Positions 982 to 47,486 of a DNA stretch of 64,000 nucleotides are shown in pieces. A model generated the notes under the pieces. It made no database searches. It worked only from the letters and a program-made list of their open reading frames with translations, and had not been told where the DNA came from. Position numbers and translations under genes: made by a program. Origin of the DNA: an uncultured Thermococci archaeon (GTDB taxonomy: Archaea; Methanobacteriota_B; Thermococci; Methanofastidiosales; Methanofastidiosaceae); contig CAZCMP010000005.1 in NCBI GenBank assembly GCA_964500005.1, positions 77,075 through 141,074 on the forward strand, read 5' to 3'. How positions within the stretch are numbered: position 1 is the stretch's first letter; every line of letters starts with the position of its first letter.

Positions 982-2280
982 ATGGTTTTCAAACTTTATG
1001 ATATTAGAGGGGTATACCCTAATGAGATAGATGAAAAATTTGCATACAGCTTAGGCAGAACGTTAGGTAAAATATATAAAAAAATCCTTTTTGGAATTGA
1101 TTCTAGGATTAGCTCTGAAAAGTTTAAAGATCCATTCTTAACAGGAGTCTTAAACAGTGATGCGGACATAGTTTATGCCGGAATCATATCTACACCTTTG
1201 ATGTATTTTTTGACTAAAAATAGATATGATCTTGGAGTAAGCGCAACAGCTTCTCACAATCCAAAAGAATTTGGAGGATTTAAAATGTGTGATAAAGATG
1301 GTATGCCTCTTTCTCCAATAAATGAAGTAAAACCATTTTTTAAAGAATACGAAATACCTCTAAAACTAGAGAAAGCTAAAAATTACTATCAAAATCTTGG
1401 AAAGGAATATAGAGATTTTTATCTAAAAATATTTAAGGATGTTAACTCAAATATTGGTATAGTGGTTGATTTTTCTAATGGTGCAACAATCCATGAAAAG
1501 AAAGTTATCGAAGATATTTTTTTAGATAAGAATTTCTTGTCTGAAAAACCAGATGGAAATTTTCCAGATCATTTGCCCAATACAATGACAGAAGACAATT
1601 TAAGAAATCTGATGTCTAAGGTAAAAGAAAAGAAAGCAAATATCGGAATCATCTTTGACGGGGATGGCGATAGACTTGGAATAGTAGACGAAAAGGGGAA
1701 TCCTATCAAGGGCGACATTTTAACAGCAATGATTGCAAATCAAATACTAAATGAGAAAAAAGGAACTATAATTTATGATTTACGCTGTAGCAAAGTAGTC
1801 CCTGAAACTGTCATTGAACAAGGTGGAAAACCGATTAAATCACGGGTAGGTCATTATTTCATAAAAAAATTAATGAGAGAAAAAGATGCCATTTTTGCTG
1901 GCGAGTTATCAAATCATTTTTACTTTAAAGAAGCTGGAGGATTTGAAGCCCCTTTATTAGCATTATTTTACATTTTCAAAGAGCTAGAGGATAAAAAACT
2001 AAGTGAAATATCTAAAAGATACCAAAAATATTACCAAAGCGGAGAGATGAACTTTGAAGTTGATAATAAAGAAAAAATAATGAATTCTATTTTACTTAAT
2101 TATAAGGATGCCAAAGTCGAAACTATTGACGGGATTTCAATTTACTATGAGGATTGGTGGGCTAATATAAGGCCTTCTAATACTGAAGCATTGCTTAGGA
2201 TTAATATAGAGTCTTCTAAAAAAAATATATTAGAAGAGAAAATCAAAGAAATTAACTCAATTGTAGAAAATAATATTTAA
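982..2280 (+). CDS. phosphoglucomutase/phosphomannomutase (alpha-D-phosphohexomutase family)
   Basis: The active-site Ser loop SATASHNP and the metal loop FDGDGDRLG are present. Confidence 0.8.
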   Translation: MVFKLYDIRGVYPNEIDEKFAYSLGRTLGKIYKKILFGIDSRISSEKFKDPFLTGVLNSDADIVYAGIISTPLMYFLTKNRYDLGVSATASHNPKEFGGFKMCDKDGMPLSPINEVKPFFKEYEIPLKLEKAKNYYQNLGKEYRDFYLKIFKDVNSNIGIVVDFSNGATIHEKKVIEDIFLDKNFLSEKPDGNFPDHLPNTMTEDNLRNLMSKVKEKKANIGIIFDGDGDRLGIVDEKGNPIKGDILTAMIANQILNEKKGTIIYDLRCSKVVPETVIEQGGKPIKSRVGHYFIKKLMREKDAIFAGELSNHFYFKEAGGFEAPLLALFYIFKELEDKKLSEISKRYQKYYQSGEMNFEVDNKEKIMNSILLNYKDAKVETIDGISIYYEDWWANIRPSNTEALLRINIESSKKNILEEKIKEINSIVENNI

Positions 2281-2295
2281 TATTGTGGTGTGTTT

Positions 2296-3618
2296 ATGTC
2301 AGATTTACCTGAAAATGGGATAATTTATAGCAAGGAAAAAAACATTACCCCTCTAAAAATTCCATCGATAGCCGAATATAGTAAAGTTGTTGGTAAAGAA
2401 AAAATAGATAAAATTAAAGAGATAAGTGAAGAACTAGACGGCATTAGATTGCTTGAACTAAATTCCACTGCTTATGGAGGGGGGGTAGCAGAGATGCTAA
2501 AATCTTCAGTTCCATTTCTAAATGAACTAGGCATACATGACGATTGGAGGGTAATGCAAGGTACAACTGAATTCTTTGCAGTCACAAAATCAATGCACAA
2601 TTTGTTGCAAGGTAAAAAACAGAATTTTACAAAAGAAATGCATGATATTTATATTAATTGTACTAAAAGAAATGCTGATGCAAATATCATTGGCGAAAAT
2701 TACGATATTATTACTATTCATGACCCTCAGCCACTTGGATTAGCTAGCTATCTTAAGAAAAAAAATGAAAAATGGCTTTGGCGGTGCCATATTGACCTAG
2801 ATGTTGAATTCTTTCAGAAAAATGAAAACATTCGAAGCTTGATAAGTAACTGGGCCCATTACTATGATGCTGCGATTTTTTCTAATGTTCAGTATATTGT
2901 TCCAGCTTGGGATTTTCCTAAGTTTATTACGCCCCCTTATATAGATCCTTTATCTGAAAAAAATAGAGACCTAAAAGAAGATTTTATAGATAAGACTTTA
3001 GAAAAACGTGGAATTAATAAAGAAAACCCTATCATCCTTCAAGTCAGCAGATTCGATAAATGGAAAGATCCTTTAGGCTTAGTAAAAATCTATAAAAATG
3101 TAAAACAAAAGGAAGATTGCCAATTAATATTAGTGGGTAGTATGGCATCTGATGACCCTGAAGGTATAGGAGTATTAGAAGAAGTACAGAAAAAGGCCAA
3201 TAGAGATAAGGACATCCATATTCTCACAAATTTGACTGATTTAGAGGTAAATGCATTCCAGCGTGCTGCTACAATCATATCCCAAAATTCAATCAAGGAA
3301 GGTTTTGGATTGACAGTTACCGAGGCTTTATGGAAAGCTAAACCTGTTGTAGGTAGACCTGTAGGCGGTTTAACATTACAGATAGTTCCAGGAAAAAATG
3401 GATTTTTAATTCACAATGACGATACAAGGACTGAAACAATAATATGGCTTCTTCGAAATCCAAAAAAACGAGAGAATGTTGGAAAAGAAGGTAAGAAATA
3501 TGTAAGAGAACATTTCTTGATGCCGGGCAGAGTATTAGATTTCTTACTGTCATTAAAGACTATAGGCAATGTTCCCAAGGAGAGTATAATAAGTTTTCAT
3601 CCATGGTATGAACTTTAA
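2296..3618 (+). CDS. treT: trehalose glycosyltransferring synthase TreT (GT4)
   Basis: Motifs NSTAYGGGVAEML, WRCHIDL, IDPLSEKN, QVSRFDKWKDPLG, VGSMASDDPEG and NAFQRA..EGFGLTVTEALWK match Pyrococcus/Thermococcus TreT as I recall it. The track start at 2290 is GTG, so I use the ATG at 2296, which follows GGTG. Confidence 0.75.
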   Translation: MSDLPENGIIYSKEKNITPLKIPSIAEYSKVVGKEKIDKIKEISEELDGIRLLELNSTAYGGGVAEMLKSSVPFLNELGIHDDWRVMQGTTEFFAVTKSMHNLLQGKKQNFTKEMHDIYINCTKRNADANIIGENYDIITIHDPQPLGLASYLKKKNEKWLWRCHIDLDVEFFQKNENIRSLISNWAHYYDAAIFSNVQYIVPAWDFPKFITPPYIDPLSEKNRDLKEDFIDKTLEKRGINKENPIILQVSRFDKWKDPLGLVKIYKNVKQKEDCQLILVGSMASDDPEGIGVLEEVQKKANRDKDIHILTNLTDLEVNAFQRAATIISQNSIKEGFGLTVTEALWKAKPVVGRPVGGLTLQIVPGKNGFLIHNDDTRTETIIWLLRNPKKRENVGKEGKKYVREHFLMPGRVLDFLLSLKTIGNVPKESIISFHPWYEL

Positions 3619-3772
3619 ATACTTACTTATCCAAGTAAATAAAAAGAAAATTAAAAAATATTTTCGTTCAATTTAAATAAAAATTCTTTTAATTTTACAA
3701 AAGGACTCGATTTATTCTCTTTTTTCAATTCAAAACGAAAATCTTATTTATTTGTTTTTACATAATTATATT

Positions 3773-4798
3773 ATGAAAGCAATAATACTGGCAGGAGGGT
3801 ATGCAACAAGACTTTGGCCAATTACAAGAGAAAGGTCAAAGGTCTTCCTTCCTATAGGAAAAAAAACTATATTAGATTTTGTCTATGAAAAAGTAAAAAA
3901 GTTGAATATTCCTATTATCGTTTCAACAAACGAATTTTTTGAAGAAGATTTCATAGAATGGGCAAAAGATAAGGACGTGAAATTGGCAATAGAAAAGACA
4001 ATCAAGGAAGAAGAGAAACTAGGCGCCGTCAGAGCCTTAGCCCAGTTGGCCAAAGATATAGACGATGAACTTTTTATTATAGCAGGGGATAATTTATTCA
4101 CCTTTGAACTAACAGACTTCTTAGGATACTACAACGATGTCAATGCACCGGTGACAGCTTTGTATGACGTTAAAAGCATGGATCTTGCAAAAAGATACGG
4201 CATTGCAGAGTTAGAAGGCGATAGGATAATAAGATTTCATGAAAAATCTGAAACCCCACCTACTACGATGGCAGGCATAGCTATGTATATATTGCCTAAG
4301 GATTCGGTCAAAATTCTATTAAACTATGTAAAGGAAAATAAAAAAGTAGATAATCTAGGAGATTTTGTAAGTTTTTTATCGGAGAAAACTAATGTTTTTG
4401 GCTATTCTTTTTCAGAAGGCTCATGGCACGATATTGGATCTCCGGATTCTTACATAGACTCACTTAAAACATATATGGAAACATATATCGGAGATTGTGA
4501 AACATCTTATAGTTGCAAGTATAGTTGTAAAATTATCGAGCCAGTCGTAATAGAGGATAAATCAGTAATTAAAGGAAAATCAGTTATAGGCCCTTACACA
4601 TATATAGGAAAAGGATGCGAAATAGATGAATCAAGTATTACTAATTCAGTTATATTTGACAACACTAGTATAACAAAATCATTTTTAGACAAGAGCCTCG
4701 TTGACTCAAAATGCAAATTATTTGGGATAAAGATAAGTAATTCAGCAATCGGCGCTTACTCCAAAATTAATAAAATATTAAAAATTTGTAGTTTTTGA
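3773..4798 (+). CDS. sugar-1-phosphate nucleotidyltransferase (NDP-glucose pyrophosphorylase) with C-terminal left-handed beta-helix domain
   Basis: The N-terminus MKAIILAGGYATRLWPIT is the G-x-G-T-R nucleotidyltransferase signature. The C-terminal third has hexapeptide-like repeats. The likely start is the ATG at 3773, not the 3752 in the track. Confidence 0.75.
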   Translation: MKAIILAGGYATRLWPITRERSKVFLPIGKKTILDFVYEKVKKLNIPIIVSTNEFFEEDFIEWAKDKDVKLAIEKTIKEEEKLGAVRALAQLAKDIDDELFIIAGDNLFTFELTDFLGYYNDVNAPVTALYDVKSMDLAKRYGIAELEGDRIIRFHEKSETPPTTMAGIAMYILPKDSVKILLNYVKENKKVDNLGDFVSFLSEKTNVFGYSFSEGSWHDIGSPDSYIDSLKTYMETYIGDCETSYSCKYSCKIIEPVVIEDKSVIKGKSVIGPYTYIGKGCEIDESSITNSVIFDNTSITKSFLDKSLVDSKCKLFGIKISNSAIGAYSKINKILKICSF

Positions 4799-6508
4799 AT
4801 AGTATTCTATTGCTTTATTCATATAATCTTTTTCAAGTATCCCTGGTAAAGTAGAAGTTTCGAATATTCTATTGGGTAATCTAAGGGATTTTATGTCAAA
4901 TCCCATCTTTTTCTTAATCTTAACTTTTTCAAGATATATTCTCTCTCCGATATCGATAATTTCATCTTTACTAAATTCCATCCCTAGCGGTTTAAAAGCT
5001 TCAACTACTATTTCTGGGGTATAGACATTTCTAGCGAAAAAACATATGACTAAACTTGAGAGAACTTGTCTCCACTTCTCTTCTTCTAAAAGTTCATCGA
5101 TTAACTCTTTGTAACCTATTTCTTTCTTCTTTTGATCAATCGAATACCCAGCATTATCAAGATGACTATGACGTAAACCTATTAGGGTACCTAGATGACA
5201 CCCATAGCCTGTGTGGTACCCAGGCATTTCATTGTTACCAAAAGCCATTGCATAGTCCTTCCCCCCATAAACATCTGAGGCCTTTTCAACGCCTTCAGCG
5301 AGATTTTTGTAAAATTCAGTGGGTTGTTTAACTAAATATTCTATGCCTTTTTCATATTTTTTGTAGTCGCTAAAATCAAAATCTAGAAGTGTATCCTTAT
5401 TAGTAATTAGGCCTTTTTGTAAAGCTTCTGTAGCCCAAGCCAAACAAACTCCGGTGCTTATTGCATCTATGGCATATGCTTCAGCTTTATGGATTAGTTT
5501 TAATAAACCTTTAGCAGATAATATCCCTAACATAGAACCCAAAGAATATATCAATTCGTAATCATAAGATATCATCAAAGTTTTAAAGAAGTAATCTGCA
5601 TTCTCATAAGGCTCTCTTAAAGATGCTATATGTATACATGCTGTGGGACAGTGATTACAGGCAACACGCCTACCGAGATACATTTCCCCTATAGTCTCAC
5701 CACTTATATTCTTCCCATATTCAAACTTTGTAGATTGGAGATTCTTTGTGGGTAGTCCACCAATTTCATTTAATGTCATAATATTAACAGATGTTCCTAT
5801 AAGGTGGTATTTTTTCATAGCATCAGATTCTGTGGCTATTTTGAATATTTTATTATAAATTTCTCTGAAACTCTTGGCATCTTCGGGCATTTTGCTACTC
5901 CGGCCTCTAACCATAACTGCCTTGAGATTCTTTGATCCAAAAACAGCACCCAGACCCAATCTTCCAAAATGTCTGTAAGTCTCAGTAGTAACTGAAGCAT
6001 ATCTAACTAGTTTTTCACCGGCACCTCCAATTGCCATGACAGTTCTCATACCTTTTCCTTCTTCTCTTTCGGCTATTATTCTACCAGTAATCCTAGAATC
6101 TTCAATACCCCAAATAACCCTGGCATCTCTAAAGAATACTTTTCCGTCTTCAATTACAAGATAAACTGGATTTTTGCTAACGCCTTTTATAACAATTGCA
6201 CCATATCCTGCATATGCTATACTTGTTGCAGTTCTTCCCCCAGCGTGGCTTTCTCCCCACTCACCTGTAAGAGGGCTTTTGAAAAGAGCTACCGTCTTAG
6301 TAGCTAAAGGATAAGCGGGAGTAAAAGGTCCAATACTAAAGATAATTACATTATCTTTACTTAGTGGATCTACGGATGGATTTAACTCCTCTTTCAGTAG
6401 TTGTGTACCTAAGCCTACACCGCCAATCCATTCTTTAAATAAATCTTCTCTCTCTTCTATAGTATAACTATTATTTGATAAATCAATAATTAGGACTCTA
6501 TTATTCAA
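4778..6508 (-). CDS. aor: aldehyde:ferredoxin oxidoreductase family tungstoenzyme
   Basis: The N-terminus aligns to the AFOR_N domain. It has the 4Fe-4S ligands CNHCPTAC and a conserved AOR C-domain. It starts at a TTG that overlaps the upstream ferredoxin stop in the sequence TTGA. Confidence 0.8.
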   Translation of the reverse strand: MNNRVLIIDLSNNSYTIEEREDLFKEWIGGVGLGTQLLKEELNPSVDPLSKDNVIIFSIGPFTPAYPLATKTVALFKSPLTGEWGESHAGGRTATSIAYAGYGAIVIKGVSKNPVYLVIEDGKVFFRDARVIWGIEDSRITGRIIAEREEGKGMRTVMAIGGAGEKLVRYASVTTETYRHFGRLGLGAVFGSKNLKAVMVRGRSSKMPEDAKSFREIYNKIFKIATESDAMKKYHLIGTSVNIMTLNEIGGLPTKNLQSTKFEYGKNISGETIGEMYLGRRVACNHCPTACIHIASLREPYENADYFFKTLMISYDYELIYSLGSMLGILSAKGLLKLIHKAEAYAIDAISTGVCLAWATEALQKGLITNKDTLLDFDFSDYKKYEKGIEYLVKQPTEFYKNLAEGVEKASDVYGGKDYAMAFGNNEMPGYHTGYGCHLGTLIGLRHSHLDNAGYSIDQKKKEIGYKELIDELLEEEKWRQVLSSLVICFFARNVYTPEIVVEAFKPLGMEFSKDEIIDIGERIYLEKVKIKKKMGFDIKSLRLPNRIFETSTLPGILEKDYMNKAIEYYSKTTNF

Positions 6509-6861
6509 TCGTTCACCTCCACAAAAGCAAGAACATCATGAGGACAGAATTGAACGCAATACCCACAGTGAATACAAACTGCAGGCTTACCATTTTCCCT
6601 TTCAAATATAGCCCCTATTGAGCATGCTTTCATACAGTTTTGGCAAGCTATACATTTATCTTCAATAAACATCACTCCGCCACCTTTCCGTGGAACTAAC
6701 GCACCAGTAGGGCATACTTCAACGCAGGGTGGCTCTTTACAGGCTCTACAAAATATAATTGTCGCCCCCATCTCAAATCCACTTAGGCTTACTGCTAAGA
6801 TTCCGGACGAGTTTATCCCTATCTCAGGTTTTTTGGGATTTTTTCTAGCACATGCAAACAT
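6505..6861 (-). CDS. 4Fe-4S poly-ferredoxin, putative AOR electron-transfer subunit (N-terminus probably extends to 6927)
   Basis: It carries three cluster motifs: CxxCx4Cx3CP, CxxCxxCx3C and CxxCxxCx3CP. A fourth motif, CVGCSLCMFAC, lies in frame upstream of the annotated ATG (see findings). Confidence 0.7.
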   Translation of the reverse strand: MFACARKNPKKPEIGINSSGILAVSLSGFEMGATIIFCRACKEPPCVEVCPTGALVPRKGGGVMFIEDKCIACQNCMKACSIGAIFERENGKPAVCIHCGYCVQFCPHDVLAFVEVND

Positions 6862-6927
6862 GCATAGGCTGCATCCAACACATTTTTCTATATCTTTAAT
6901 TTGTAGTTGTTTTAATTTACCAACTCC

Positions 6928-8247
6928 TTATAATTCATTTTCTAATATTCTTCTAGTTTCAATTTTGTATTCCTCAACGTTTGGTTGATTAAATGGATTT
7001 ATTCCTAATAAATACCCCAAAAGCATTGTTTCAATCATCATAAATTGTAAAAACTGGCCTATAGAATATTCCGATTTATCAAGCATATGAATCTCTGTAA
7101 AAGGTCTTTTTCGGGCTCTGTAAGCTTTTATAACTCCTTTGTATATAGCCCTCATTATTGTCTGTAATCTTTTTCCAGATATCTCTTTAACTAATTCAGA
7201 GTATTCTCCATTTTCAGACACCTTAACAATATTCTTATTTTTCTTTATTTTGACAAAAGTTGTGAATTTGTCGGCGGGTCCACCCAGATACAACTGTGCC
7301 ATTGAATGAAGGTCAGTTGAGCCTATAGAGATCGTGGGAGTTATGCCTACATTTACGCGCTCTTTTTTTAAATTATACTCTTTTCCTATACTCTCTCCTA
7401 TCAACTGTTTGTACCATTTCCCTAAAGATTCTAAGTCTGGACTAAATATGAATAAATTATGAATATTTTTTCCTCTTTTGTAATGGATGTACTTAAGCGA
7501 AGCACTAATTACTGCAGGATTATCCTTTACTTCAGTATTCAAACATTTCTTGATGATTTCTTTTGCTCCTTTCAATAATTCGGTAATATCAATTTCTATT
7601 AATCCTAGGGGAAATAAGCCTACAGCCGATAAAATAGAATATCTTCCGACTACCTTTTTTGGAATAGGCAGGGTATCAAATCTTTCTTTTTGAGCCAAAT
7701 TCCAAAATTTTGAACCTTCATCTGATGTTACAATTATATACTCTCTGTAGTCTTTTTTGTATTTCTTCAATAATTCAACTAAAATCTCAAAATTTGCAAT
7801 AGTTTCTGTAGTGCTTCCAGATTTACTTATTCCATTAAGTATTATATTTCCTCCATTCTTTAAAACTGGTTCAATTATTTCTATTATATTATTAATCAGG
7901 TCAGAATCAACAGTATCTGCATAAAGTATTTTTGTATTTGGATTTAATTCGTTGTATAATCTCCCATATATGGCTTCTTGAACAGCAATCGTTCCTAGAT
8001 TACTTCCACCAATACCTATTACCACTATATATGAAGGATTCAATTTCTTTTTTTCATTTATTAATTTTTTGATATTTTCGACATATTCTAAATCGTATGG
8101 AAGATTAATAACTGATTCATGCACTTCATAATGTTTTTCCTCTATGTCTGTTAACTTTTCTATTTTTTCTGTTAATTTCTTAGCTACAGCCATCAAATCT
8201 AAATCTAATACCATGCTATCTTTAAAATCAAATTTTAATTCATTCAT
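6928..8247 (-). CDS. pgi: glucose-6-phosphate isomerase
   Basis: PGI family motifs are present: GIGGSNLG, GRYSILSAVG and the sugar-isomerase domain. Confidence 0.85.
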   Translation of the reverse strand: MNELKFDFKDSMVLDLDLMAVAKKLTEKIEKLTDIEEKHYEVHESVINLPYDLEYVENIKKLINEKKKLNPSYIVVIGIGGSNLGTIAVQEAIYGRLYNELNPNTKILYADTVDSDLINNIIEIIEPVLKNGGNIILNGISKSGSTTETIANFEILVELLKKYKKDYREYIIVTSDEGSKFWNLAQKERFDTLPIPKKVVGRYSILSAVGLFPLGLIEIDITELLKGAKEIIKKCLNTEVKDNPAVISASLKYIHYKRGKNIHNLFIFSPDLESLGKWYKQLIGESIGKEYNLKKERVNVGITPTISIGSTDLHSMAQLYLGGPADKFTTFVKIKKNKNIVKVSENGEYSELVKEISGKRLQTIMRAIYKGVIKAYRARKRPFTEIHMLDKSEYSIGQFLQFMMIETMLLGYLLGINPFNQPNVEEYKIETRRILENEL

Positions 8248-8255
8248 TTTAACAC

Positions 8256-9224
8256 TTATTTTATTTTAATAATTTTATGAGGATATTCACTGATTTTAGA
8301 ATTGATCTCCTCTATATCCAAAAATTTATTTTTTGCACCCAAGTATTGAATTACAGATTCGGCTTCAGTTGCCCCATATTCTAAGGCAATTTTGATATTT
8401 TTAGATTTCATGAAACCTGTAAGAAATCCTGCACCAAAACTATCTCCCGCCCCAGTAGTTTCTTTTACATTTACCTCGTTTGGTATAATCATATGTCCTT
8501 CTTTGTTTGTAAATGTATAAGCTCCATGATCGCCATCAGTTATTATTGCTATTTCTGGCCCATAACTAAGTAAATTATCTGCCATAAGTCTTGGATCAGT
8601 ATGGCCAGTAATCATTTTGGCTTCTTCAAAATTTACGCAAACTATATTAGAATTGTTAAGTATTTTTTCAAACTTTTCTATTCCTTTTCTTATTAAATAA
8701 GAACTAGGATTATACATTATCCCAATATTATTTTCATTTGCATATTTTGATATTTTTATCTGGGTGTCTAGTGAATCTTCAAGCATTGTACAAAGATAAA
8801 ACCATTTGGTGTTTAATCTTGATAAGTTAATTTCATTAAATCTAAGTTTATCATTTTTATCTTTTAAGGTAAGGATTGTCCTGTCCCTTCCTTTCGCATC
8901 CAGAATTACAGAATAATCTGAGAGGCCTTCTTCTTGTATCAATAAAGATGTATCACATTGAATAGAGTTTAGATATTTCAATATTTTATCTGCATTGTGA
9001 TCATCGCCTATTTTTCCCAATAATGCAACTTTCAATCCAAATGTTGCAAATGCTCCAGCAGTATTTGTTCCGCCACCTCCAATTTCAAAATTCATTGATT
9101 TAACAAGGATCTTGCTCCCATATGGTACGGATAATTGTCCATCTTTAGTTATTCTAAATAGATCTTTTCCTGTGTCTACAAATAGATCTATAGTACAACT
9201 ACCCATGGTAATAACGTCATACAT
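8256..9224 (-). CDS. PfkB-family carbohydrate kinase, probable ATP-dependent 6-phosphofructokinase
   Basis: It has the GG dipeptide, GGGGTN and the C-terminal TGAGDSFGAGF anion hole. It sits between fba and pgi. A GGTGA SD precedes the ATG. Confidence 0.7.
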   Translation of the reverse strand: MYDVITMGSCTIDLFVDTGKDLFRITKDGQLSVPYGSKILVKSMNFEIGGGGTNTAGAFATFGLKVALLGKIGDDHNADKILKYLNSIQCDTSLLIQEEGLSDYSVILDAKGRDRTILTLKDKNDKLRFNEINLSRLNTKWFYLCTMLEDSLDTQIKISKYANENNIGIMYNPSSYLIRKGIEKFEKILNNSNIVCVNFEEAKMITGHTDPRLMADNLLSYGPEIAIITDGDHGAYTFTNKEGHMIIPNEVNVKETTGAGDSFGAGFLTGFMKSKNIKIALEYGATEAESVIQYLGAKNKFLDIEEINSKISEYPHKIIKIK

Positions 9225-9228
9225 TTTT

Positions 9229-10119
9229 TCACCTTGGGTATTCTTTCATGATGTCTCTAATTTTCTCATTGATTTTCCAGGAATCTTCTCTACTTCTTTG
9301 CCAAATATTTCTTCCAAAAATTATTCCAGTGGCGCCAGCTTCCATGGAAAGTTTAACTTTATTTAAAAGATCTTCATCTCCTAGTTTTGATCCTCCAGAT
9401 ACGAGAACCATCGTATTGCCTGCAGACTTTACTACTTTTTTAATAGCTTCTTCTGGAGACAAATCTAGTTGATTATATGGTTCCGGATACAAATCCATTT
9501 TCGAATTGTCGATAATAGGAAAATTAATCTTTATAATATCTGCGCCCAATTCACACCCTACACGCGCAGCATAGTCTACAGCGTATAGAGATTCTTTTCC
9601 TCCCTTTGCTTCAATGGCCTTTCCTCTTGGATAAGACCAAACTATTATTGGCAGCCCATATCTATCTGCTTCTCTTTTTACTTTTCTAAATTGTTCAATA
9701 TCTTCCTTTTGATTGGGAGTCCCAACATATAAAGTATATCCAACGGCATCTGCACCTAGTCTAATAGCATCTTCTAAACTAGCGGTCAATGGAGAAACTG
9801 GAGCATCGTCTTCTGGTATTGAAGTTTTTCCGTTTAATTTTAAAACTAGAGGTATGATGCCCGCATATTTTTTCATATATTTTTCTGCAAGTCCAATATG
9901 CATTACAATGCCTGATACTCCAAGACTTATAGCCAGATTTAGAACGTATTCAGGATCCAGACTTCCGGGATTTGAAAAGAAGTCTCGTGGCCCATGTTCT
10001 AAACCATGATCAATGGGCAATAGATTCAATGTTCCATTTCTTAATCCATGGCTGTATAATAATCTATACAATCTAACTCTTTTTCCTAAAGCTAGGTCCA
10101 AATTACTTAAAATATCCAT
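9229..10119 (-). CDS. fba: class I fructose-bisphosphate aldolase (archaeal DhnA/FbaB type)
   Basis: Motifs LPIDHGLEHGP and GADAVGYTLYVG...IIKINFP match the archaeal class IA aldolase. The track start at 10140 is TTG. The ATG at 10119 follows GGAGGT. Confidence 0.8.
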   Translation of the reverse strand: MDILSNLDLALGKRVRLYRLLYSHGLRNGTLNLLPIDHGLEHGPRDFFSNPGSLDPEYVLNLAISLGVSGIVMHIGLAEKYMKKYAGIIPLVLKLNGKTSIPEDDAPVSPLTASLEDAIRLGADAVGYTLYVGTPNQKEDIEQFRKVKREADRYGLPIIVWSYPRGKAIEAKGGKESLYAVDYAARVGCELGADIIKINFPIIDNSKMDLYPEPYNQLDLSPEEAIKKVVKSAGNTMVLVSGGSKLGDEDLLNKVKLSMEAGATGIIFGRNIWQRSREDSWKINEKIRDIMKEYPR

Positions 10120-10248
10120 ATTTTTTACCTCCATTATCAAAAATATAACAAAAATAGCGTCTAAACTATCATTGAGATAAAAATATGAATCTATTGCCCA
10201 AACTACTCAATAATTTTTCTTTTTATCTAATATAACTCTTTCGGTAAA

Positions 10249-11337
10249 TTACAAGGAGTTTACAATTGAGTAGAATGCAGCCCCATATAAACTAACGTTA
10301 TAGTCAAGGATTAAATATACTGGGATAGACTTAAGAACTGCTTTTTGAGTCTGACAATAAATAAATTCATCTGAAAACTCTTTACTTTCAATTAGCCCCT
10401 TATTTTTCATTGCTATACCTCCTGCGATATACACACCCCCCAATGCAAGAGAATCTAAAGCAAAATTTTTTGCGCATCTGCCATAAAACATGCCAAATAG
10501 TCTAAAAGTTTCTCTGCATTTTAGATCTATATTTCTGTATTTTGATATGGCGGGAGGTTTATCCATAGATCTTTCTATTATTTCATCGTATTTTGTTTTT
10601 CCATAATTTCCAGTATTTTTTAAGAATGAGTATATACTCTCTATGCCCTGCCCAGACAATATATCCTCGTATCTTAAGGGGCCTTGAAGATTCTTTTTTT
10701 CTTTTATATAATTAATTAATTCAAATTCAAAAATATCTTTAATAGGAAAATCCGAATGTCCCCCTTCACTAGGAAGGGACTCATATATGCCGTTATGGTT
10801 GTTGAAATAAAGTATTGACTTTCCAAGCCCCGTTCCTGCACCGATAATTGCTTTAGTTTTTTCAAGAGTTTTCTCATTAATTCCTGGCCTAATAACCAAA
10901 ATATCTGCTGGCCGATATTTAATAAGATAATTTATTCCGTAACCTATTGCCTGGAAATCATTTATTATATGGACTATATCTAAACCGGTTTCTTTTTTAA
11001 TTTCATTTATATTGATTTTCCAATTTAAATTTGTTAAATTTATTATATTTTCTTTAATATTCACTCCAGCACATCCAAAACATGAAACTTTAATCTCTAT
11101 AGCATGATTATTTTTAGCAAATTTCAGCATTTCTTTTATAGGATGTATAATTGAGTTAAGTTTTTTGCTATTATAGCGCTTAAAAAACATCAAATAGGGA
11201 ATATTTTCACTTATACCACAAATTCCTATAGTAGTATTGGTCCCTCCAATGTCCGCAACAAGAACATATTTAGAATATAAAAGATTGTTATTTGAAACAT
11301 ATTCTATCTCTATTTCATTTACCAAATGAACACCCAA
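10249..11337 (-). CDS. glk: glucokinase (Glk family)
   Basis: Motifs VADIGGTNT, IINDF, GAGTGLG and EGGH are collinear with E. coli Glk. The start is uncertain, either TTG at 11337 or 11325. Confidence 0.75.
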   Translation of the reverse strand: MGVHLVNEIEIEYVSNNNLLYSKYVLVADIGGTNTTIGICGISENIPYLMFFKRYNSKKLNSIIHPIKEMLKFAKNNHAIEIKVSCFGCAGVNIKENIINLTNLNWKININEIKKETGLDIVHIINDFQAIGYGINYLIKYRPADILVIRPGINEKTLEKTKAIIGAGTGLGKSILYFNNHNGIYESLPSEGGHSDFPIKDIFEFELINYIKEKKNLQGPLRYEDILSGQGIESIYSFLKNTGNYGKTKYDEIIERSMDKPPAISKYRNIDLKCRETFRLFGMFYGRCAKNFALDSLALGGVYIAGGIAMKNKGLIESKEFSDEFIYCQTQKAVLKSIPVYLILDYNVSLYGAAFYSIVNSL

Positions 11338-11448: not shown

Positions 11449-13647
11449 ATGAAAAGATTATTAATAGTTTCAAACAGACTGCCTATTACCATAGAAAAGA
11501 ATAATGAGGGCTTAAATTTTAAGCACAGCGTGGGGGGTCTTGCTACAGGACTTGCATCATTCTATAAAAACTATGATAGCACTTGGATAGGCTGGTGTGG
11601 GCTTTCTTCAGACAAAATAAATATCGATGAAAATAAATATATAAAGTCAAAGTTATTGGAAGAATATCAAAATTACCCAGTTTTTTTATCAAAAAAAGAT
11701 ATTGAACTATATTACAATGGATTTTGTAATAGTACTTTATGGCCACTTTTTCATGGATTCACACAGTATACCGAATATATAAAAAAGAATTGGGAGACTT
11801 ATAAAAGCGTAAACGAGAAGTTCTGTGAAGCCGTATGTGAAATTGCAAATAATGGGGATATAATCTGGATTCATGATTATCATTTAATGCTACTTCCAAA
11901 ACTAATTAGAGAAAAATTGCCCCATACTTCAATAGGATTCTTCTTACATATTCCATTCCCTTCTTTTGAGATCTATAGGCTACTGCCATGGAGAAGAGAT
12001 ATCCTTGAAGGGATTCTTGAAGCTGATTTGATTGGGTTTCATATATCTGATTATTCAAGGCATTTCTTATCAGGAGTATTAAGGATATTGGGATTTGAAA
12101 ACGTTGCAGGTAAAGTCTTCACGGGGAAACATTATTCTGAAGTCGATGCATTTCCTATGGGGATAGAGTATGATAAATTTTCAAGTATGGTAAAAGATGA
12201 AAATGTTCAAAAAAAAATAAATGAGATACGGGAGAAAATAGGGGAATATAAAACTATTTTTTCGATAGATAGGCTTGATTATACAAAAGGAATTCTCCAA
12301 AGACTTGAGGCATATGACTATTTTCTCGATAAGTATCCTACTTATAGGGGAAAGGTCGAATTAATTCTTGTAACAGTCCCATCAAGAACTAAAGTTGAGC
12401 ATTATGAAAAACTTAAAAACAAGATTGATGAATATGTTGGAAAAATAAATGGAAAATATGGAAGAGTAAACTGGACGCCAATTAGATATCTATATCGTTA
12501 TATCTCATATTATTCTCTTCTTTCATTGTACAATCTTTCTGATGTAGGATTGATAACCCCCATAAGAGATGGTATGAATTTAATTGCCAAGGAGTTAATA
12601 GCTTCAAAAAATGATGGAAAGGGAGTGCTTATCCTTAGTGAAATGGCCGGTGCTTCAGTTGAACTTGGAGAGGCATTGATAGTTAATCCAAACAATGCAG
12701 AAGAAATTGCAGATGCAATTAAAAAAGGATTGGAAATGCCAATAGATGAACAGATTGAAAGAAATAGAATCATGCAAAAAAGATTAAAAAAATATAATGT
12801 GACAAGATGGGCAGAAGATTTTATAGAAAAACTTGAAGAAGTAAAAAATGAACAGAAAACACTTGAAGTAAAACTTATTCTACCTTCAACTAAAATTGGC
12901 ATGATAAATAGATACAAAAAAAGTGAAAATCGTTTATTCTTGCTCGATTATGATGGAACTTTAGTTCCATTTTCAAATGCACCCCATAAAGCATTACCGG
13001 ATAATGAATTAATTTCTATTCTAAAAAATCTATCAAATGATCCTAAAAATAATGTTGTCATAATAAGTGGGCGCGATAAAAATACTCTTGAGAATTGGTT
13101 TAAAGGTGTCAATTTAAGTATTATAGCTGAGCATGGTGGGCAAATTAAGGAAAAAGGAAGCAATTGGATTTTAACTAAACCAGAGGAAGTAGAATGGAAA
13201 GGAAGAATCTTGCCTTTATTAGAACTGTATGTTGATAGAACGCCGGGATCATTAATCGAAAGTAAGGAACTTTCTCTTGTTTGGCACTATAGAAAAGTAG
13301 ATCCAGAGTTAGCAGCTATACGGTCTAAAGAACTAAAAGCAGCTTTAATGCACCTAACTTCTAATCTAAATGTGGGAGTTTTTGAAGGTAATAAAATTAT
13401 TGAAGTTAAGAATATAAATATAAATAAAGGACATGCGACTTCAAACTGGCTTAATAAAAATAAATGGGATTTTATAGTTACAATTGGAGACGATTTCACA
13501 GATGAAGATATCTTCAAAGTAGTTCCAGAAAATGCATATTCAATAAAGGTAGGTATTGAGCCTTCTCAAGCCAAGTACAATGTTGAATCGTACAAAGAAG
13601 TTAGGATATTACTAAAAGAATTAACCTCTGTAGAATCAAATGATTAG
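11449..13647 (+). CDS. bifunctional trehalose-6-phosphate synthase (GT20) / trehalose-6-phosphate phosphatase (HAD)
   Basis: The N-terminus LIVSNRLP...GGLATGL and GFFLHIPFP are OtsA-like. The C-terminus LFLLDYDGTL and GDDFTDE is an OtsB-like HAD domain. Confidence 0.85.
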   Translation: MKRLLIVSNRLPITIEKNNEGLNFKHSVGGLATGLASFYKNYDSTWIGWCGLSSDKINIDENKYIKSKLLEEYQNYPVFLSKKDIELYYNGFCNSTLWPLFHGFTQYTEYIKKNWETYKSVNEKFCEAVCEIANNGDIIWIHDYHLMLLPKLIREKLPHTSIGFFLHIPFPSFEIYRLLPWRRDILEGILEADLIGFHISDYSRHFLSGVLRILGFENVAGKVFTGKHYSEVDAFPMGIEYDKFSSMVKDENVQKKINEIREKIGEYKTIFSIDRLDYTKGILQRLEAYDYFLDKYPTYRGKVELILVTVPSRTKVEHYEKLKNKIDEYVGKINGKYGRVNWTPIRYLYRYISYYSLLSLYNLSDVGLITPIRDGMNLIAKELIASKNDGKGVLILSEMAGASVELGEALIVNPNNAEEIADAIKKGLEMPIDEQIERNRIMQKRLKKYNVTRWAEDFIEKLEEVKNEQKTLEVKLILPSTKIGMINRYKKSENRLFLLDYDGTLVPFSNAPHKALPDNELISILKNLSNDPKNNVVIISGRDKNTLENWFKGVNLSIIAEHGGQIKEKGSNWILTKPEEVEWKGRILPLLELYVDRTPGSLIESKELSLVWHYRKVDPELAAIRSKELKAALMHLTSNLNVGVFEGNKIIEVKNININKGHATSNWLNKNKWDFIVTIGDDFTDEDIFKVVPENAYSIKVGIEPSQAKYNVESYKEVRILLKELTSVESND

Positions 13648-19095: not shown

Positions 19096-20145
19096 TCAAT
19101 TAACGTTGCAGCCTTCTAGATCTGGGTGATTTTTGCATCTGTTGTTTCTTAGTATTGAAAGGAATTTATTCATTGGAAGTGTAGTTGGACAGCCAGTGTT
19201 ACCTCTTGCATTAAGTTTTGGGTCTCCGATAAAGTAACTGTCGTTAGGATCGTCGTATATGTCTATGTCCTTTCCGTTGTTGCAGAACTGATTGTAGTAC
19301 ACTTTTGTCCCTGTTGGATTTCCGTCTGCATGGACAAAGTTATGATCATGGCGTTCCTGTATACCGAATTTTGGATTATTCCTGATAATATTGTTTCTAA
19401 TTAATGTATTTGTTACTATCCCACCGATTTCAATTCCTCTATCCACTGATTTTTCGATTATGTTATTTTCAACTAGAACATCGGAGATTTCTCCATTGCC
19501 CCATGTAACTATGCTTATTCCGATATCGCCCCCACCGAGAATATGATTGTCTTTAATAAGAATGTTTTTCGCTTTTGAATTCCAAGTTACGCCCATTATT
19601 CCGGCGCTATCCCAGCCTTCCTTATAAGGTCCTCCTTCTACTATGTTTCCGATAACTTTTGAATCATTTCCTGCAACTTGAATTCCAACACGAAGATGGT
19701 TAGGTACTTTTATTTTGTTATTTAGTATATTGCAAGTTGTTCCTTCTCCACTGCCCGTTCCCTGAATAATTCCAAAAGATTCAGGCGATGTGCTGGATAA
19801 AATAATAGTAAAGCCTTCCACAGTTATCGTCCCTAGATTCTTACCATCAATATTGATTACCCTATAGCTTGTAACGCTTGTGCCAGGTCCGATTATTGTT
19901 GAATCTCTTCCCCCTACAGATTTTAATGTAATATTTGATTTATTTATCACGACGTTTTCATTATAAGTACCTGGATATACGAGTATGGTGTCACCGGCAG
20001 CTGCTGCAGTGATTGCATCTCCGATCGTTGTATATGTTTTTCCAGCTCCCACTTCACGAGTAGTAGCTGCACTTACTGGATCAATAATAGCCAATATAGA
20101 AACAACTAATAAAATTCCTATAATTATCGATTTTATTTTTTTCAT
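19096..20145 (-). CDS. secreted right-handed parallel beta-helix (pectate-lyase/NosD-like) repeat protein
   Basis: It has a signal peptide MKKIKSIIIGILLVVSILAIIDPVSA. It has beta-helix repeats with N/G/I ladders. The N-terminal TILVYPGTYNENVVI motif is shared with 25720-27084. Confidence 0.75.
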   Translation of the reverse strand: MKKIKSIIIGILLVVSILAIIDPVSAATTREVGAGKTYTTIGDAITAAAAGDTILVYPGTYNENVVINKSNITLKSVGGRDSTIIGPGTSVTSYRVINIDGKNLGTITVEGFTIILSSTSPESFGIIQGTGSGEGTTCNILNNKIKVPNHLRVGIQVAGNDSKVIGNIVEGGPYKEGWDSAGIMGVTWNSKAKNILIKDNHILGGGDIGISIVTWGNGEISDVLVENNIIEKSVDRGIEIGGIVTNTLIRNNIIRNNPKFGIQERHDHNFVHADGNPTGTKVYYNQFCNNGKDIDIYDDPNDSYFIGDPKLNARGNTGCPTTLPMNKFLSILRNNRCKNHPDLEGCNVN

Positions 20146-20319: not shown

Positions 20320-20640
20320 TATTGGATAATAATTGTAATAATTTTATAATTATATATGTTACAACATATATATTGTTGCATCTTGAGATTTTTAGAAAAA
20401 AATGCAGAAAAAAAATTGAGCGATGGGGGAAATTTTAATTGAGTTTTGGAAAAAATAGAGGGATAAAATGGTCTAAAGCGGCTGTGCTGGAACAGTATCG
20501 CCTATGATATATGTTGAGTAATCCGAGCCGATTTAAGGCGGAAAAGGAAGGGAAAAGCTCCGATTATTTAACCGATTATGGCGGGGGTAAACGGGTTAAA
20601 AAGAGAGGGAAAAAAGGAAATATTTTAAAATAAAATATAT
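20320..20640. repeat. right arm of the ~300-bp inverted repeat (partner 15341-15641)
   Basis: Its reverse complement aligns with 15341-15641. It also contains an ATAATTGTAATAATTTTA box at 20329-20346. Confidence 0.7.
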
Positions 20641-21866
20641 TATCCGGTGTAACCAAGTTCTCTCGCCCTGTCGAAACACTGTTGAGCTTCAGAGTATCTT
20701 CCTAAGTCCTGAAGTGTTCGCCCTTTGTTATTCCATGCGAGGGCATAGTTAGGGTCTATTGCAATAGCTTTGTCATAGGAAATTAAGGCTTCAGAGTTTT
20801 TTCCAAGGTTTCTGAGTGCTACTCCCCTATTGTTCCATGCTTGTTTATAGTCGGGATCTATTGCAAGCGCTTTATCGTATGAGATTATGGCTTCAGAAGG
20901 CCTTCCAAGGTTTCTGAGTGCTATCCCTCTGCCATACCATGCTTCTTTGATGTTTGGATCCAATGATATCGCCTTGTCGTAGACTTGTAGTGCTTCTGTG
21001 TACCTTTCAAGAAGTCTAAGTGCGGCCCCCTTACCGACCCATGCAAGGGCATAGTTTGAATCTATAGAAATCGCTTTATCAAAATTAGTTATGGCTTCAG
21101 AGTGCCTATCTAGCTCATTGTATGCATATCCCCTCCAATACCATGCTTCTTTGATGTTTGGATCTATAGAAATCGCTTTGTTATAAGATTGTATTGCTTC
21201 AGGATACCTTTCAAGATCTATGAGAGCTTTTCCTTTATTTGTCCATGCATCCTTAAAGTTTGAATCCATAGAAATAGCCTTATCAAAGCAAGTTATGGCT
21301 TCAGAATATTTCTTTTGTCCTTGAAGTAAAATCCCCTTGCCATTCCAGGAATTAACTAGGTATTTCTTAGTTTCTTTGTAATCAGGATCAAGCTCCATAA
21401 CTTTCTCAAAATTTTTTATTGCTTCATCATATTTTGCTTGATCATAAAAAGACACGCCTTCGTTGTATAACTTTTCAGCTTCAGATGCGCCTGGAAATAA
21501 AATAAGGGCGGCTACCAAAATAATAACTACTCCAATGCCCCCTATTGCAATTATCTTTTTTTTGCCTTTAGGCGTGGGAGATTCCTGATAATTTTTTGCT
21601 TCGGCTTTAGGGGGTTCCATTGTTTTTTCAAAAGGAGTCCCACATTGCCCACAAACCTGATCAGACAATGCCATTTTAGATCCACAGTTTTGACATATCT
21701 TACCCTCTGCTTCTACCTTTGTGCCACAAGATGGACAAAAGAGAGAGCCTCTAGGAAAAGAACTATTACATTTACTGCATTTATTTTCGTCCATTATATC
21801 CCATTTAGCCATATTATTTAGCATATATAAGGGTATGGAAAATAAAATAAATATTCTTTCATGCAT
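20640..21866 (-). CDS. double zinc-ribbon / TM / TPR-repeat protein
   Basis: The N-terminus has CxxC...CxxC x2. It has one TM helix and about 8 TPR repeats (AW..KG.AL..L.RY.EA...YDKAI.IDPN). The C-terminus is ELGYTG. It is a paralog of 38103-38837. Confidence 0.8.
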   Translation of the reverse strand: MHERIFILFSIPLYMLNNMAKWDIMDENKCSKCNSSFPRGSLFCPSCGTKVEAEGKICQNCGSKMALSDQVCGQCGTPFEKTMEPPKAEAKNYQESPTPKGKKKIIAIGGIGVVIILVAALILFPGASEAEKLYNEGVSFYDQAKYDEAIKNFEKVMELDPDYKETKKYLVNSWNGKGILLQGQKKYSEAITCFDKAISMDSNFKDAWTNKGKALIDLERYPEAIQSYNKAISIDPNIKEAWYWRGYAYNELDRHSEAITNFDKAISIDSNYALAWVGKGAALRLLERYTEALQVYDKAISLDPNIKEAWYGRGIALRNLGRPSEAIISYDKALAIDPDYKQAWNNRGVALRNLGKNSEALISYDKAIAIDPNYALAWNNKGRTLQDLGRYSEAQQCFDRARELGYTG

Positions 21867-23418: not shown

Positions 23419-24339
23419 TTAATCTTCCTGATTTTCCTTTAGGATTTTTAATATCTGTGCAATTGGAAGTGAAGGTTTATTTCCTGCTTTTGCCAATCTG
23501 CTTGGATTCCAATTTATTATCTGATTAATTTCTTGGAGGTCGTATTTCATTTTGGCATCTTTATAGTTGTATAGGTCTTGTGCAAGTGCTATGGCATCAT
23601 TGTTGTTAAATGCCATCCCTCCAAAGTGCATTAGGACGACAGTCTGCCCCGGATTAACGGTGACATTCTCCCAACTGTAATTAATATACCCGCTTTCATC
23701 AGAGAACTCCCACAGCGAATCTATTCTGTCAGAACCACCAGGCCCATCCCATACATGAGAAAGAGAAGGGTCATGTGTACCATCGCCATTATCAGTAAGC
23801 TGGTCATACGATACTGCCCAGTAATCGTTTACATCTGCTAATGCATCGCCACTTGAAGTTTTAACAACTCGATTGTTAGAGTCAGAGCCAAAATTTGAAT
23901 ATATCCGCACACCAACTGATATAGGGGATTCTGTGGGATTGTAAAGTATCTCTAAATACCTTACCCAGTTCCGATCTTCAGGGAAGTAAACCTTGCGCCT
24001 AACAATCAGATTAGACATAGTATAATCATCCAAAAAGTATTCTCTGCCATCTGCTTCTGTAGTGTAGTTCTCGCTATCATCGTTATTGTACTGTGGATAA
24101 TCCTTTGGATTTCCGATTCCAACATAAAGGCGGAAAGCATGTTCGTCATATGCATCACGTAAGGATCCATCCTTGCTGTGTGCATCATTAATATGTCCAA
24201 ATTTCGTATCAAAATCATCAAAAATGAAGTCCATAACATCTACGTCAAATTTATCGCCGAAAACAGACGCAATCCCAAACGTACTTACTATAAATAGAAA
24301 GCTTATCAATATCGCCATTATTTTCTTCATAATAATCAC
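23419..24339 (-). CDS. secreted hypothetical protein with conserved C-terminal ILKILKENQED tail
   Basis: It has a signal peptide. There are no recognisable domains. The C-terminal 16 aa are shared with 25720-27084. Confidence 0.55.
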   Translation of the reverse strand: MIIMKKIMAILISFLFIVSTFGIASVFGDKFDVDVMDFIFDDFDTKFGHINDAHSKDGSLRDAYDEHAFRLYVGIGNPKDYPQYNNDDSENYTTEADGREYFLDDYTMSNLIVRRKVYFPEDRNWVRYLEILYNPTESPISVGVRIYSNFGSDSNNRVVKTSSGDALADVNDYWAVSYDQLTDNGDGTHDPSLSHVWDGPGGSDRIDSLWEFSDESGYINYSWENVTVNPGQTVVLMHFGGMAFNNNDAIALAQDLYNYKDAKMKYDLQEINQIINWNPSRLAKAGNKPSLPIAQILKILKENQED

Positions 24340-25719: not shown

Positions 25720-27084
25720 TTATTTTTCTTCGTTTTCCTTTAGGATCTTAATTATCTTATCCACCGGGAGATATTGAGTCTCTGAGCCACCTATAGATGG
25801 GTAGTGGTACCCCATATCTACAGTTCCTCTATCAAATACCCCTTTGACATTTGTCGTAAAACCTGTTGAAAGACTAAGGTTTTTAGCTAAGTCAGAACCA
25901 CTGTCAACACAAGGGCTCAAATTAGAGAGGTAGAATTCCCCTAAGGGCCCTTTGGTGAAAATTGGATCTACAGATATGCATCCTTCACCAGGCTCTACCC
26001 CTCCAAATGCTTGTCCCCAGTTGTCCTTGTTGTTCCAGGAATTAGAATATATAATTGAGTTGAAAAATAATAAGGGGGGTACCCATATGCCGTAAACGGG
26101 TGTTAGGTCATCGCTAGCAGTATTACTGCTTACTATGCAATTTTCAACTGTTATGCCAACACCTATGGCAGAAATTCCATAAACTGATCTTCCGTCAGTA
26201 TAAATATTATTGATGGAATTATTACTAACGGTACAATTGATAATTAAACTGTTTTCCGTTAGATAAGGATTATCCACGTCAAGATTAATACCTTCCAAAT
26301 AAGTTCCCCTTAGGAGCTTATTTCCGCTGATTGAAATATTTTTTATTAAAAAAGGGCTTTTGCCCGCAAGATATACGCCAATTAAGGCCTCCCCATTTTC
26401 TAAAGTGTTATTGTTGACCGTTCCATTTTTTATTGTCCAATTGTTGCCACCCCCAACTACAGGCCTAAATGTAGAAGTAATTTTAAACAAATTTCTGTCA
26501 AATTCAAACCCATCTATCAACCAGTTATTTCCATAGCCTGAAATACCAATAATACGGATTCCATTATAAAAAATATTATCACTCATAGAAACGTTTTTTA
26601 CTGACCAATTGTCTCCTATTCCAAGTATACAAGAAAGATCTCCAGACACAGGAATGACGTCTGTCGTGAGGTCGAATTTACAGTTTTCTATTGTTACATT
26701 GCTTCCCTTAAAGGTAATACCATATAACTGAAAATTTCTTAAACCAAGATTTTTGATTGTTATATCGTTTAGAATCTTATTTGTATAATCATAATTACCT
26801 ATACAAATATCAGATCCTCCTCTACAATCAATTATGGTGTTTAAAGGGTCATCCCCTATTATGGTGACATTTGGATTATTGATTTCGATCCCATTTGGGT
26901 ATGTGCTAATGTCATATGTTCCATAGTGTACATAGACTGTATCCCCCGGTTCTGCTGCACCTATCTTGGCTACAATGTCGTCCCCTGGGTAAACATGTAT
27001 ATTTCCAGCAGAAACTGGATTCAAAAAGATAAGAAAAGCGCCTAAAATAATAAAGACCGTTATAATACTTGATACTTTTTTCAT
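25720..27084 (-). CDS. secreted right-handed parallel beta-helix repeat protein with C-terminal IIKILKENEEK tail
   Basis: It has a signal peptide MKKVSSIITVFIILGAFLIFLNPVSA. It has extensive beta-helix repeats (NN..NN.I....G). It is a paralog-like of 19096-20145. Confidence 0.75.
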   Translation of the reverse strand: MKKVSSIITVFIILGAFLIFLNPVSAGNIHVYPGDDIVAKIGAAEPGDTVYVHYGTYDISTYPNGIEINNPNVTIIGDDPLNTIIDCRGGSDICIGNYDYTNKILNDITIKNLGLRNFQLYGITFKGSNVTIENCKFDLTTDVIPVSGDLSCILGIGDNWSVKNVSMSDNIFYNGIRIIGISGYGNNWLIDGFEFDRNLFKITSTFRPVVGGGNNWTIKNGTVNNNTLENGEALIGVYLAGKSPFLIKNISISGNKLLRGTYLEGINLDVDNPYLTENSLIINCTVSNNSINNIYTDGRSVYGISAIGVGITVENCIVSSNTASDDLTPVYGIWVPPLLFFNSIIYSNSWNNKDNWGQAFGGVEPGEGCISVDPIFTKGPLGEFYLSNLSPCVDSGSDLAKNLSLSTGFTTNVKGVFDRGTVDMGYHYPSIGGSETQYLPVDKIIKILKENEEK

Positions 27085-27176
27085 GAAAAACACCATTATA
27101 ATTGTAAAAATAGATAATCATTAATATTTAAATATTTGCTTAAGTTGAAAAGTAAAATAATTTTGAAAATAAAAAA

Positions 27177-47329: not shown

Positions 47330-47486
47330 ATTTTTCACTATCCGGATAGTGACTACTAATGTAGTCTAATTTTACTGAGATTTAGACTATTTATCTCTTT
47401 TGGTATATCTAACAAAATTTTAGGAAGTTAGCGATAGAAAAATTAGATATAATTATAAACTTCAACTGAACGGATAATATGTTAAA

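Follow-up and report, generated by a model that had tools for sequence, protein, structure and literature searches.

A heterodimeric GOR-type oxidoreductase predicted from an upper-glycolytic gene string in an uncultured Methanofastidiosales archaeon

Ferredoxin-linked oxidation of glyceraldehyde-3-phosphate (GAP) is associated with more than one lineage of the WOR family of tungsten-containing oxidoreductases. The GAPOR of Pyrococcus furiosus (WOR clade 23, Class I) converts GAP to 3-phosphoglycerate (3-PG) with ferredoxin, bypassing both glyceraldehyde-3-phosphate dehydrogenase (GAPDH) and phosphoglycerate kinase (PGK); it is a monomer of ~650 aa that has no WorS and does not carry the Tyr/His pair of second-shell residues. 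The characterised GOR of Caldicellulosiruptor bescii (GOR-L/GOR-S; WOR clade 20, Class II), which oxidises GAP with ferredoxin, is of a different build, with the gene for a 4-cluster small subunit directly upstream of that for a catalytic subunit of ~580 aa, all four second-shell residues and a predicted glycolytic role. The aldehyde oxidoreductase AOR of P. furiosus (PfAOR, structure 1AOR), a Class I enzyme of broad aldehyde specificity, has no small subunit. Here we describe a gene pair of this family, worS and worL, that closes a string of six minus-strand genes (4778-11337) in a 64-kb stretch of contig CAZCMP010000005.1 from an uncultured Methanofastidiosales archaeon; the window below means this whole stretch.

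We propose, with a probability of roughly 60%, that the predicted WorLS pair is a heterodimeric GOR-type oxidoreductase that would convert GAP to 3-PG with ferredoxin and so complete a trehalose/glucose catabolic module. Like the C. bescii GOR, the window pair has a small Fe-S subunit encoded upstream (with motifs for four clusters if the stretch ahead of its ATG is translated) and the complete second shell, belongs to the same super-clade and has a predicted ferredoxin-linked, glycolytic role. It differs in lying in a mostly archaeal sister cluster, in having a function that is predicted, and in an anomalous worS start. The proposed reaction is that of the P. furiosus GAPOR, reached in an independent lineage. 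PfAOR resembles WorL in its fold, in its cluster ligands and in its second shell, and differs in class, in having no small subunit and in its broad aldehyde specificity. The window enzyme falls in the same cluster as the 'GAPOR-like' lineage of Wolframiiraptor and Thermoproteota (Buessecker et al., 2022), and function is predicted in both; that lineage was described from phylogeny and modelled structures only, and the window adds a glycolytic operon as independent support from genomic context. The heterodimeric GOR type from bacteria and the 'GAPOR-like' label of the archaeal cluster are thus already known; new are the setting in an operon and the neighbour pattern seen over the clade. In our literature search we found no paper on this operon, and the papers found on Methanofastidiosa did not deal with glycolysis, trehalose or aldehyde oxidoreductases.

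The gene string and its oxidoreductase pair

Gene identities were assigned from Pfam and NCBIfam profile matches. The original prediction had described a minus-strand string of glucokinase, aldolase, PfkB kinase, glucose-6-phosphate isomerase (PGI), Fe-S protein and AOR-family enzyme, and all six open reading frames (ORFs) were found with the expected domains. From first gene to last they are:

10249..11337, minus strand: glk, bacterial-type (Glk family) glucokinase; PF02685 at 1.2e-72, TIGR00749 at 197 bits against a cutoff of 225
9229..10140, minus strand: DhnA/DeoC-type class I aldolase; PF01791 at 2.2e-43, best NCBIfam model NF006704 at 225 bits against a cutoff of 277
8256..9224, minus strand: PfkB-family sugar kinase; PF00294 at 6.7e-38, no NCBIfam equivalog reached
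6928..8247, minus strand: pgi, glucose-6-phosphate isomerase (PGI/SIS superfamily); PF00342 at 1.4e-21, NF010697 at 263 bits against a cutoff of 443
6505..6927, minus strand: worS, small 4Fe-4S subunit; 118 aa from the ATG at 6861
4778..6508, minus strand: worL, 576-aa catalytic subunit; AFOR_N PF02730 at 4.8e-68 and AFOR_C PF01314 at 5.9e-55

The spacings along the string are 108, 4, 8 and 66 bp, in agreement with the gaps of 4-110 bp given originally; that range does not describe worS and worL, which overlap by 4 bp. The six genes would be co-transcribed. Because the aldolase, kinase and isomerase score below the NCBI equivalog cutoffs, their exact specificities are taken from family and position. 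The product of 9229..10140 is probably an archaeal-type class I fructose-1,6-bisphosphate (FBP) aldolase. The best solved structures for the PfkB kinase are ribokinase-like or IolC-like, at 2e-17 or weaker, and its position between aldolase and PGI points to a role as 6-phosphofructokinase. On its sequence, the worL product is predicted to be the catalytic subunit, with pyranopterin and a [4Fe-4S] cluster, of a Class II WOR from the GOR-related 'GAPOR-like' archaeal cluster, with tungsten as the presumed metal. As a separate observation, Glk (PF02685) belongs to the bacterial Glk family, unlike the ADP-dependent or ROK types usual in archaea, a hint that the operon, or at least some of it, was acquired horizontally.

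In the proposed pathway, Glk would phosphorylate glucose, perhaps freed from trehalose by TreT acting in reverse; PGI would isomerise the product, the PfkB kinase would phosphorylate it again, and the class I aldolase would cleave it. WorL would then oxidise GAP straight to 3-PG at its tungstopterin site, electrons passing from the WorL [4Fe-4S] cluster to the WorS clusters and on to ferredoxin. Such a modified Embden-Meyerhof-Parnas (EMP) pathway would bypass GAPDH and PGK, forgoing one ATP per triose and gaining low-potential reduced ferredoxin. GAP as the substrate, ferredoxin as the acceptor and a role in recycling trehalose or stored sugar are the components of this proposal that the gene content suggests. 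We favour the catabolic direction because the string contains two catabolic kinases (Glk and PfkB) and no fructose-1,6-bisphosphatase (FBPase), and because the ferredoxin-linked oxidation of GAP is estimated at about -26 kJ/mol, GAPOR being regarded as unidirectional (PMC12525153).

GAPDH and PGK had been reported as missing from the operon, and their domains are found neither there nor among the window ORFs of at least 209 aa that were scanned. As a check on the proposed role this is weak, given that C. bescii runs its GOR alongside GAPDH (PMC13328260).

worS directly precedes worL in nearly all of the 80 species-level genome loci of the clade. In the window, no WorN or WorABC gene adjoins the pair, whose neighbours are pgi and a nucleotidyltransferase (NTP-transferase) gene; inspection of the N-terminal stretch by eye revealed no twin-arginine motif. 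Judged by sequence, the pair fits the Class II WOR architecture (WorL+WorS), whose two characterised members are the P. furiosus ASOR and the C. bescii GOR (PMC13328260). The original prediction was right to point out the separate Fe-S subunit as a departure from the monomeric GAPOR; such a subunit is what defines the known heterodimeric GOR of bacteria (Class II WOR), a type that it did not name.

WorS itself has an unusual start. From the ATG at 6861, the sole canonical start, it comprises 118 aa with 13 Cys and three complete motifs; with the in-frame sequence 6862-6927 included, it has 16 Cys and four CxxCxxCxxxC-type motifs, enough for four [4Fe-4S] clusters. The frame is open back to the in-frame pgi stop, and the stretch 6862-6930 contains no ATG, GTG or TTG. 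The same upstream sequence is present in an independent assembly (L091), which over 6 kb matches the window at 99.93% identity. In relatives with 90%-identical WorL, worS begins with an ATG that overlaps the pgi stop and encodes 141 aa, and in the metagenome-assembled genome (MAG) with 80%-identical WorL an ATT occupies that place. Four substitutions in the upstream codons can be assigned to the window lineage, all of them synonymous. WorS is 67% identical to AF_0076 of Archaeoglobus fulgidus (136 aa) and 40.6% identical to the small subunit of the GOR cluster in Pseudobacteroides cellulosolvens.

Position of WorL in the WOR family

To the archaeal GAPOR model NF040818, WorL scores 34.5 bits against a cutoff of 1300, and the match covers the N-terminal 120 residues only. 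When 1.8 billion cluster representatives were searched exhaustively with phmmer, WorL matched its own 50% cluster at 715 bits and about 15 further representatives at 413-576 bits (37-46% identity), with all others at or below 318 bits. The best solved-structure match is PfAOR (6.8e-64; 220 bits in phmmer). The closest named relative, NPV51226.1 (P0005) from a Candidatus Methanofastidiosum MAG, shares 79-80% identity with WorL; many Archaeoglobi proteins come next at 62-71%, and members from Geocrenenecus and Nitrososphaeria are at 55-57%. One of the near clusters includes NOR48359.1 of a Methanosarcinaceae archaeon, and when the near clusters were used as a search profile, proteins of Clostridia came up, among them one from P. 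cellulosolvens. Over its full length, WorL is 48.7% identical to the P. cellulosolvens protein (P0376), 45% to a Methanosarcinaceae protein (P0292) and ~31-33% to other WORs. The former two serve below as proxies.

We built a neighbour-joining (NJ) tree from 575 columns with 100 bootstraps (distances and NJ computed in numpy). With 99% bootstrap support, the tree unites the window protein with both proxies and with the near representatives in a super-clade; inside this, the clade of the window protein is set apart at 100%, and the window protein pairs with NPV51226.1 at 100%. These relationships can be read against a published maximum-likelihood tree (Supplementary Data 7 of Buessecker et al., 2022; PMC9246946). 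There, P. cellulosolvens lies inside the bacterial cluster that holds the characterised C. bescii GOR (B9MQI2), and a Methanosarcinales cluster joins this bacterial GOR cluster with 97.7/100 support. NPV51226.1 belongs to a subclade of 100/100 support together with A. fulgidus Aor-2 (AF_0077), A. veneficus and Ferroglobus; this subclade sits among Bathyarchaeota, Korarchaeota and Thermoprotei in the region that also holds the Wolframiiraptor 'GAPOR-like' gene. According to the authors of that tree, the archaeal cluster forms a highly supported monophyletic group with the bacterial GOR cluster, and is distinct from the P. furiosus GAPOR (PMC9246946). By sequence, the window enzyme is accordingly assigned to the archaeal 'GAPOR-like' cluster, alongside NPV51226.1, Aor-2 and the Wolframiiraptor AOR1 lineage; it is not inside the bacterial GOR clade (clade 20) and falls in the sister cluster.

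Identities as an archaeal GAPOR, an AOR or an FOR were considered and rejected on the GAPOR model score, the tree position and the presence of WorS. The original prediction had named firm branching within the AOR or FOR clades as refuting a role in the oxidation of GAP or a sugar aldehyde, and WorL did not branch there: its near relatives score 413-715 bits and all others no more than 318, and the NJ tree (99%) places it elsewhere, as the published tree does its 80%-identical orthologue. The GAP-oxidising role, put forward originally beside a sugar-aldehyde-oxidising one, gains support from the GOR-related tree position together with the conserved operon, and stays a predicted function.

We also compared individual residues. 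C284, C287, C291 and C489 of WorL align with the PfAOR cluster ligands C288/291/295/494, and T239, E318, Y431 and H449 with the PfAOR second-shell residues T243/E313/Y427/H448. Across 33 clade members the cluster Cys and the second shell are invariant, save for T239, which is present in >90% of the sequences. All four second-shell residues are kept in GOR, and only the Thr and Glu in archaeal GAPOR (PMC12096430). A further 31 WorL positions are conserved across the super-clade, including the clusters of both proxies, and differ in other WORs. Those beside catalytic or pterin-binding residues include H180, K233, H235, Y315 and H447, which, as a conjecture only, might bind phosphate. The AlphaFold2 model of WorL (pLDDT 76.7) has low confidence at the cofactor-binding loops and contains no cofactors, and was not used for pocket analysis.

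One locus of the clade came from an unexpected source. On a 5-kb contig labelled 'Thermotoga sp.' (L014, QNAT01000104.1), the WorL homologue RKX54575.1 nests in the Archaeoglobus subclade and is 67% identical to the window protein; the contig is probably archaeal and mis-binned.

Conservation of the string and neighbours of worSL

The order fba-pfkB-pgi-worS-worL is kept in at least three diverged Methanofastidiosa lineages, and where the contig is long enough to show it (L001 and L008), the string is headed by glk, as in the window. The contig from Candidatus Methanofastidiosum (L001) carries the same island of sugar genes around the string, gene for gene, and contigs with 90%-identical WorL also carry it. 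With the gene order shared by relatives at 80% and 90% WorL identity, the arrangement is no chance juxtaposition.

Beyond Methanofastidiosa, the neighbours of worSL differ from lineage to lineage. In an uncultured archaeal lineage with WorL at 72% identity, a bona fide FBP aldolase/phosphatase gene (572 bits against a cutoff of 520) lies directly upstream of worS, and downstream of worL are two MoeA genes, one of which carries a periplasmic-binding-protein-like domain (L006, 6388-13076; also L007 and L010). A bona fide phosphoribulokinase gene (PRK; 286-301 bits against 236) abuts or overlaps worS in nine Archaeoglobaceae MAG loci, which suggests a PRK-worSL operon in this family; RuBisCO was not seen among the immediate neighbours of these loci. 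They include:

L044, 8572-11734: PRK with worSL; the same arrangement in L018, L024, L040, L050, L052, L054 and L057

A GpsA-like glycerol-3-phosphate dehydrogenase gene converges on worL in nine loci, mostly of Geoglobus. In a Thermoplasmata MAG (L065, 9561-16270), worSL converges on genes for a ROK-family kinase and TreT, with OtsA and OtsB next in line, and this locus repeats the trehalose theme of the window with a non-homologous glucokinase type. Loci of one neighbour group are probably not independent of each other, which brings the number of separate juxtapositions to about five instead of dozens. The metabolite common to these neighbours is GAP, 3-PG or triose phosphate.

In the GOR-cluster locus of P. 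cellulosolvens (L090), worS (139 aa) and worL are followed by MoeA/pterin-biosynthesis and Tup-like transporter genes, a layout that resembles the MoeA-linked archaeal locus L006. The window pair, in contrast, is embedded in an EMP/trehalose operon.

The island around the string in the window consists of trehalose- and glucose-related genes:

11449..13647, plus strand: otsAB fusion (trehalose-6-phosphate synthase/phosphatase), divergent from glk; NF011071 at 1028 bits against a cutoff of 634
3752..4798, plus strand: sugar-1-phosphate nucleotidyltransferase, convergent with worL and overlapping it by 21 bp; PF00483 at 5.3e-39
2290..3618, plus strand: treT, trehalose glycosyltransferring synthase; PF21269 at 4.8e-48 and Glycos_transf_1
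982..2280, plus strand: phosphoglucomutase/phosphomannomutase (PGM/PMM); PGM_PMM domains I-IV

The latter three form, with a gene for a major facilitator superfamily transporter, a co-directional plus-strand set that converges on worL. The otsAB fusion occupies the same position in L001, and the NTP-transferase gene adjoins worL also in L001, L008, L091 and L092. Genes of the Entner-Doudoroff (ED) type (KDG aldolase, gluconate dehydratase) were not seen in the sugar island. Genes for MscS-type mechanosensitive channels are inserted in the islands of relatives, at differing places (L001, 13132-14166; L008, 1470-2528), and are absent from the window; these insertions fit an osmolyte-related module. 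Together with the trehalose-synthesis genes around the string, they would be consistent with a module that makes and recycles an osmolyte.

Elsewhere in the window, two ORFs of 439 and 470 aa (27637-28956 and 45926-47338) have a near-identical signal-peptide-like N-terminus (MKKILALTIVFLMGIAS...SSQ..PC) and no Pfam match, which suggests a pair of paralogous secreted proteins; several more ORFs that look secreted and lack matches are close by (19096-20145, 23419-24339 and 25720-27096). In two further products (20640-21866 and 38103-38837) TPR repeats follow a zinc ribbon at the N-terminus, and an S-adenosylmethionine-dependent methyltransferase gene is followed by a DUF1638 gene at 61494-63133. 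There are no tRNA genes anywhere in the 64 kb.

Alternative readings and significance

Several observations weigh against GAP oxidation by WorLS. The start of WorS is anomalous in this strain, with the first Cys motif ahead of the ATG at 6861. The placement of WorL draws on the published tree through the 80% orthologue and the two proxies rather than through the C. bescii GOR-L sequence, and identity to the bacterial GOR cluster is only 45-49%. WOR clades are known for switching substrates. Most worSL loci of Archaeoglobi have no sugar-metabolism neighbours and many show the order DHH-worS-worL; A. fulgidus has genes for a DHH protein and BirA beside the pair. Within the string, the specificities of the PfkB kinase and the aldolase fall under curated cutoffs, and neither triosephosphate isomerase nor the lower glycolytic genes are in the 64-kb window. 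Separately, the GAP:ferredoxin oxidoreductase activity reported for starch-grown A. fulgidus 7324 was considered as support and dropped. A later paper describes a starch-degrading Thermococcus isolated from a mixed culture, with strain 7324 named throughout; its link to that strain is one that we infer.

The alternative that survives best, although we regard it as unlikely, is a broad-specificity aldehyde:ferredoxin oxidoreductase that would serve detoxification, like PfAOR or the gut WORs, with its glycolytic position incidental. That PfAOR is the top solved-structure match, that all four AOR-type second-shell residues are present and that many clade loci are free of sugar genes would all accord with such a role. 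It is opposed by the difference in identity, ~31-33% to AOR-type enzymes versus 45-49% to the GOR-related clusters, by a tightly spaced string kept in three lineages, and by five different sugar-phosphate linkages across the clade.

Somewhat lower we place the possibility that the same enzyme works mainly in reverse or in both directions, reducing 3-PG to GAP with low-potential ferredoxin and feeding gluconeogenesis, trehalose synthesis or PRK/RuBisCO; this we consider quite improbable. The anabolic neighbours found elsewhere, FBP aldolase/phosphatase and PRK, speak for it, as do the trehalose-synthesis genes of the window island (OtsAB, TreT, PGM and NTP-transferase), and AOR-family enzymes are reported to reduce acids with low-potential donors (PMC9295118). 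The composition of the operon, with its two kinases and without an FBPase, and the free-energy estimate given above speak against it. The link to PRK needs no reversal, since PRK/RuBisCO and an oxidative GOR both deliver 3-PG. A broader version, to which we give an equally small chance, is that the WorLS clade provides a reversible ferredoxin:3-PG/GAP couple that could run towards GAP in strict anaerobes with very low-potential ferredoxin. Such a couple would explain the FBP aldolase/phosphatase and PRK neighbours in Archaeoglobi-related genomes and, if real, would be an entry to gluconeogenesis, trehalose synthesis or a PRK/RuBisCO cycle that depends on neither ATP nor NAD(P)H.

Least likely of all, though also raised originally, is that the enzyme acts on a sugar aldehyde that carries no phosphate, such as glyceraldehyde, or on glucose to give gluconate, as a side branch of trehalose/glucose catabolism. 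The linkage to TreT and glucokinase-type genes in two unrelated lineages (the window and L065) would favour this reading, which is countered by the lack of ED-type genes in the island, by the adjacent phosphorylating EMP enzymes and by the nearest characterised relative, described as oxidising GAP in place of GAPDH (PMC13328260).

A member with a defined physiological role is available for 5 of the 92 WOR clades (PMC13328260), and the archaeal cluster beside the bacterial GOR has a label based on phylogeny only. The conserved operon that links Glk, PGI, PfkB kinase and class I aldolase with this enzyme is the clearest argument from genomic context so far that this cluster handles GAP or 3-PG, and the linkages to PRK and FBP aldolase/phosphatase raise a testable question of reaction direction. 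For the Methanofastidiosa, described as fastidious methyl-reducing methanogens, the locus suggests a modified EMP pathway that would burn trehalose or glucose and yield reduced ferredoxin.

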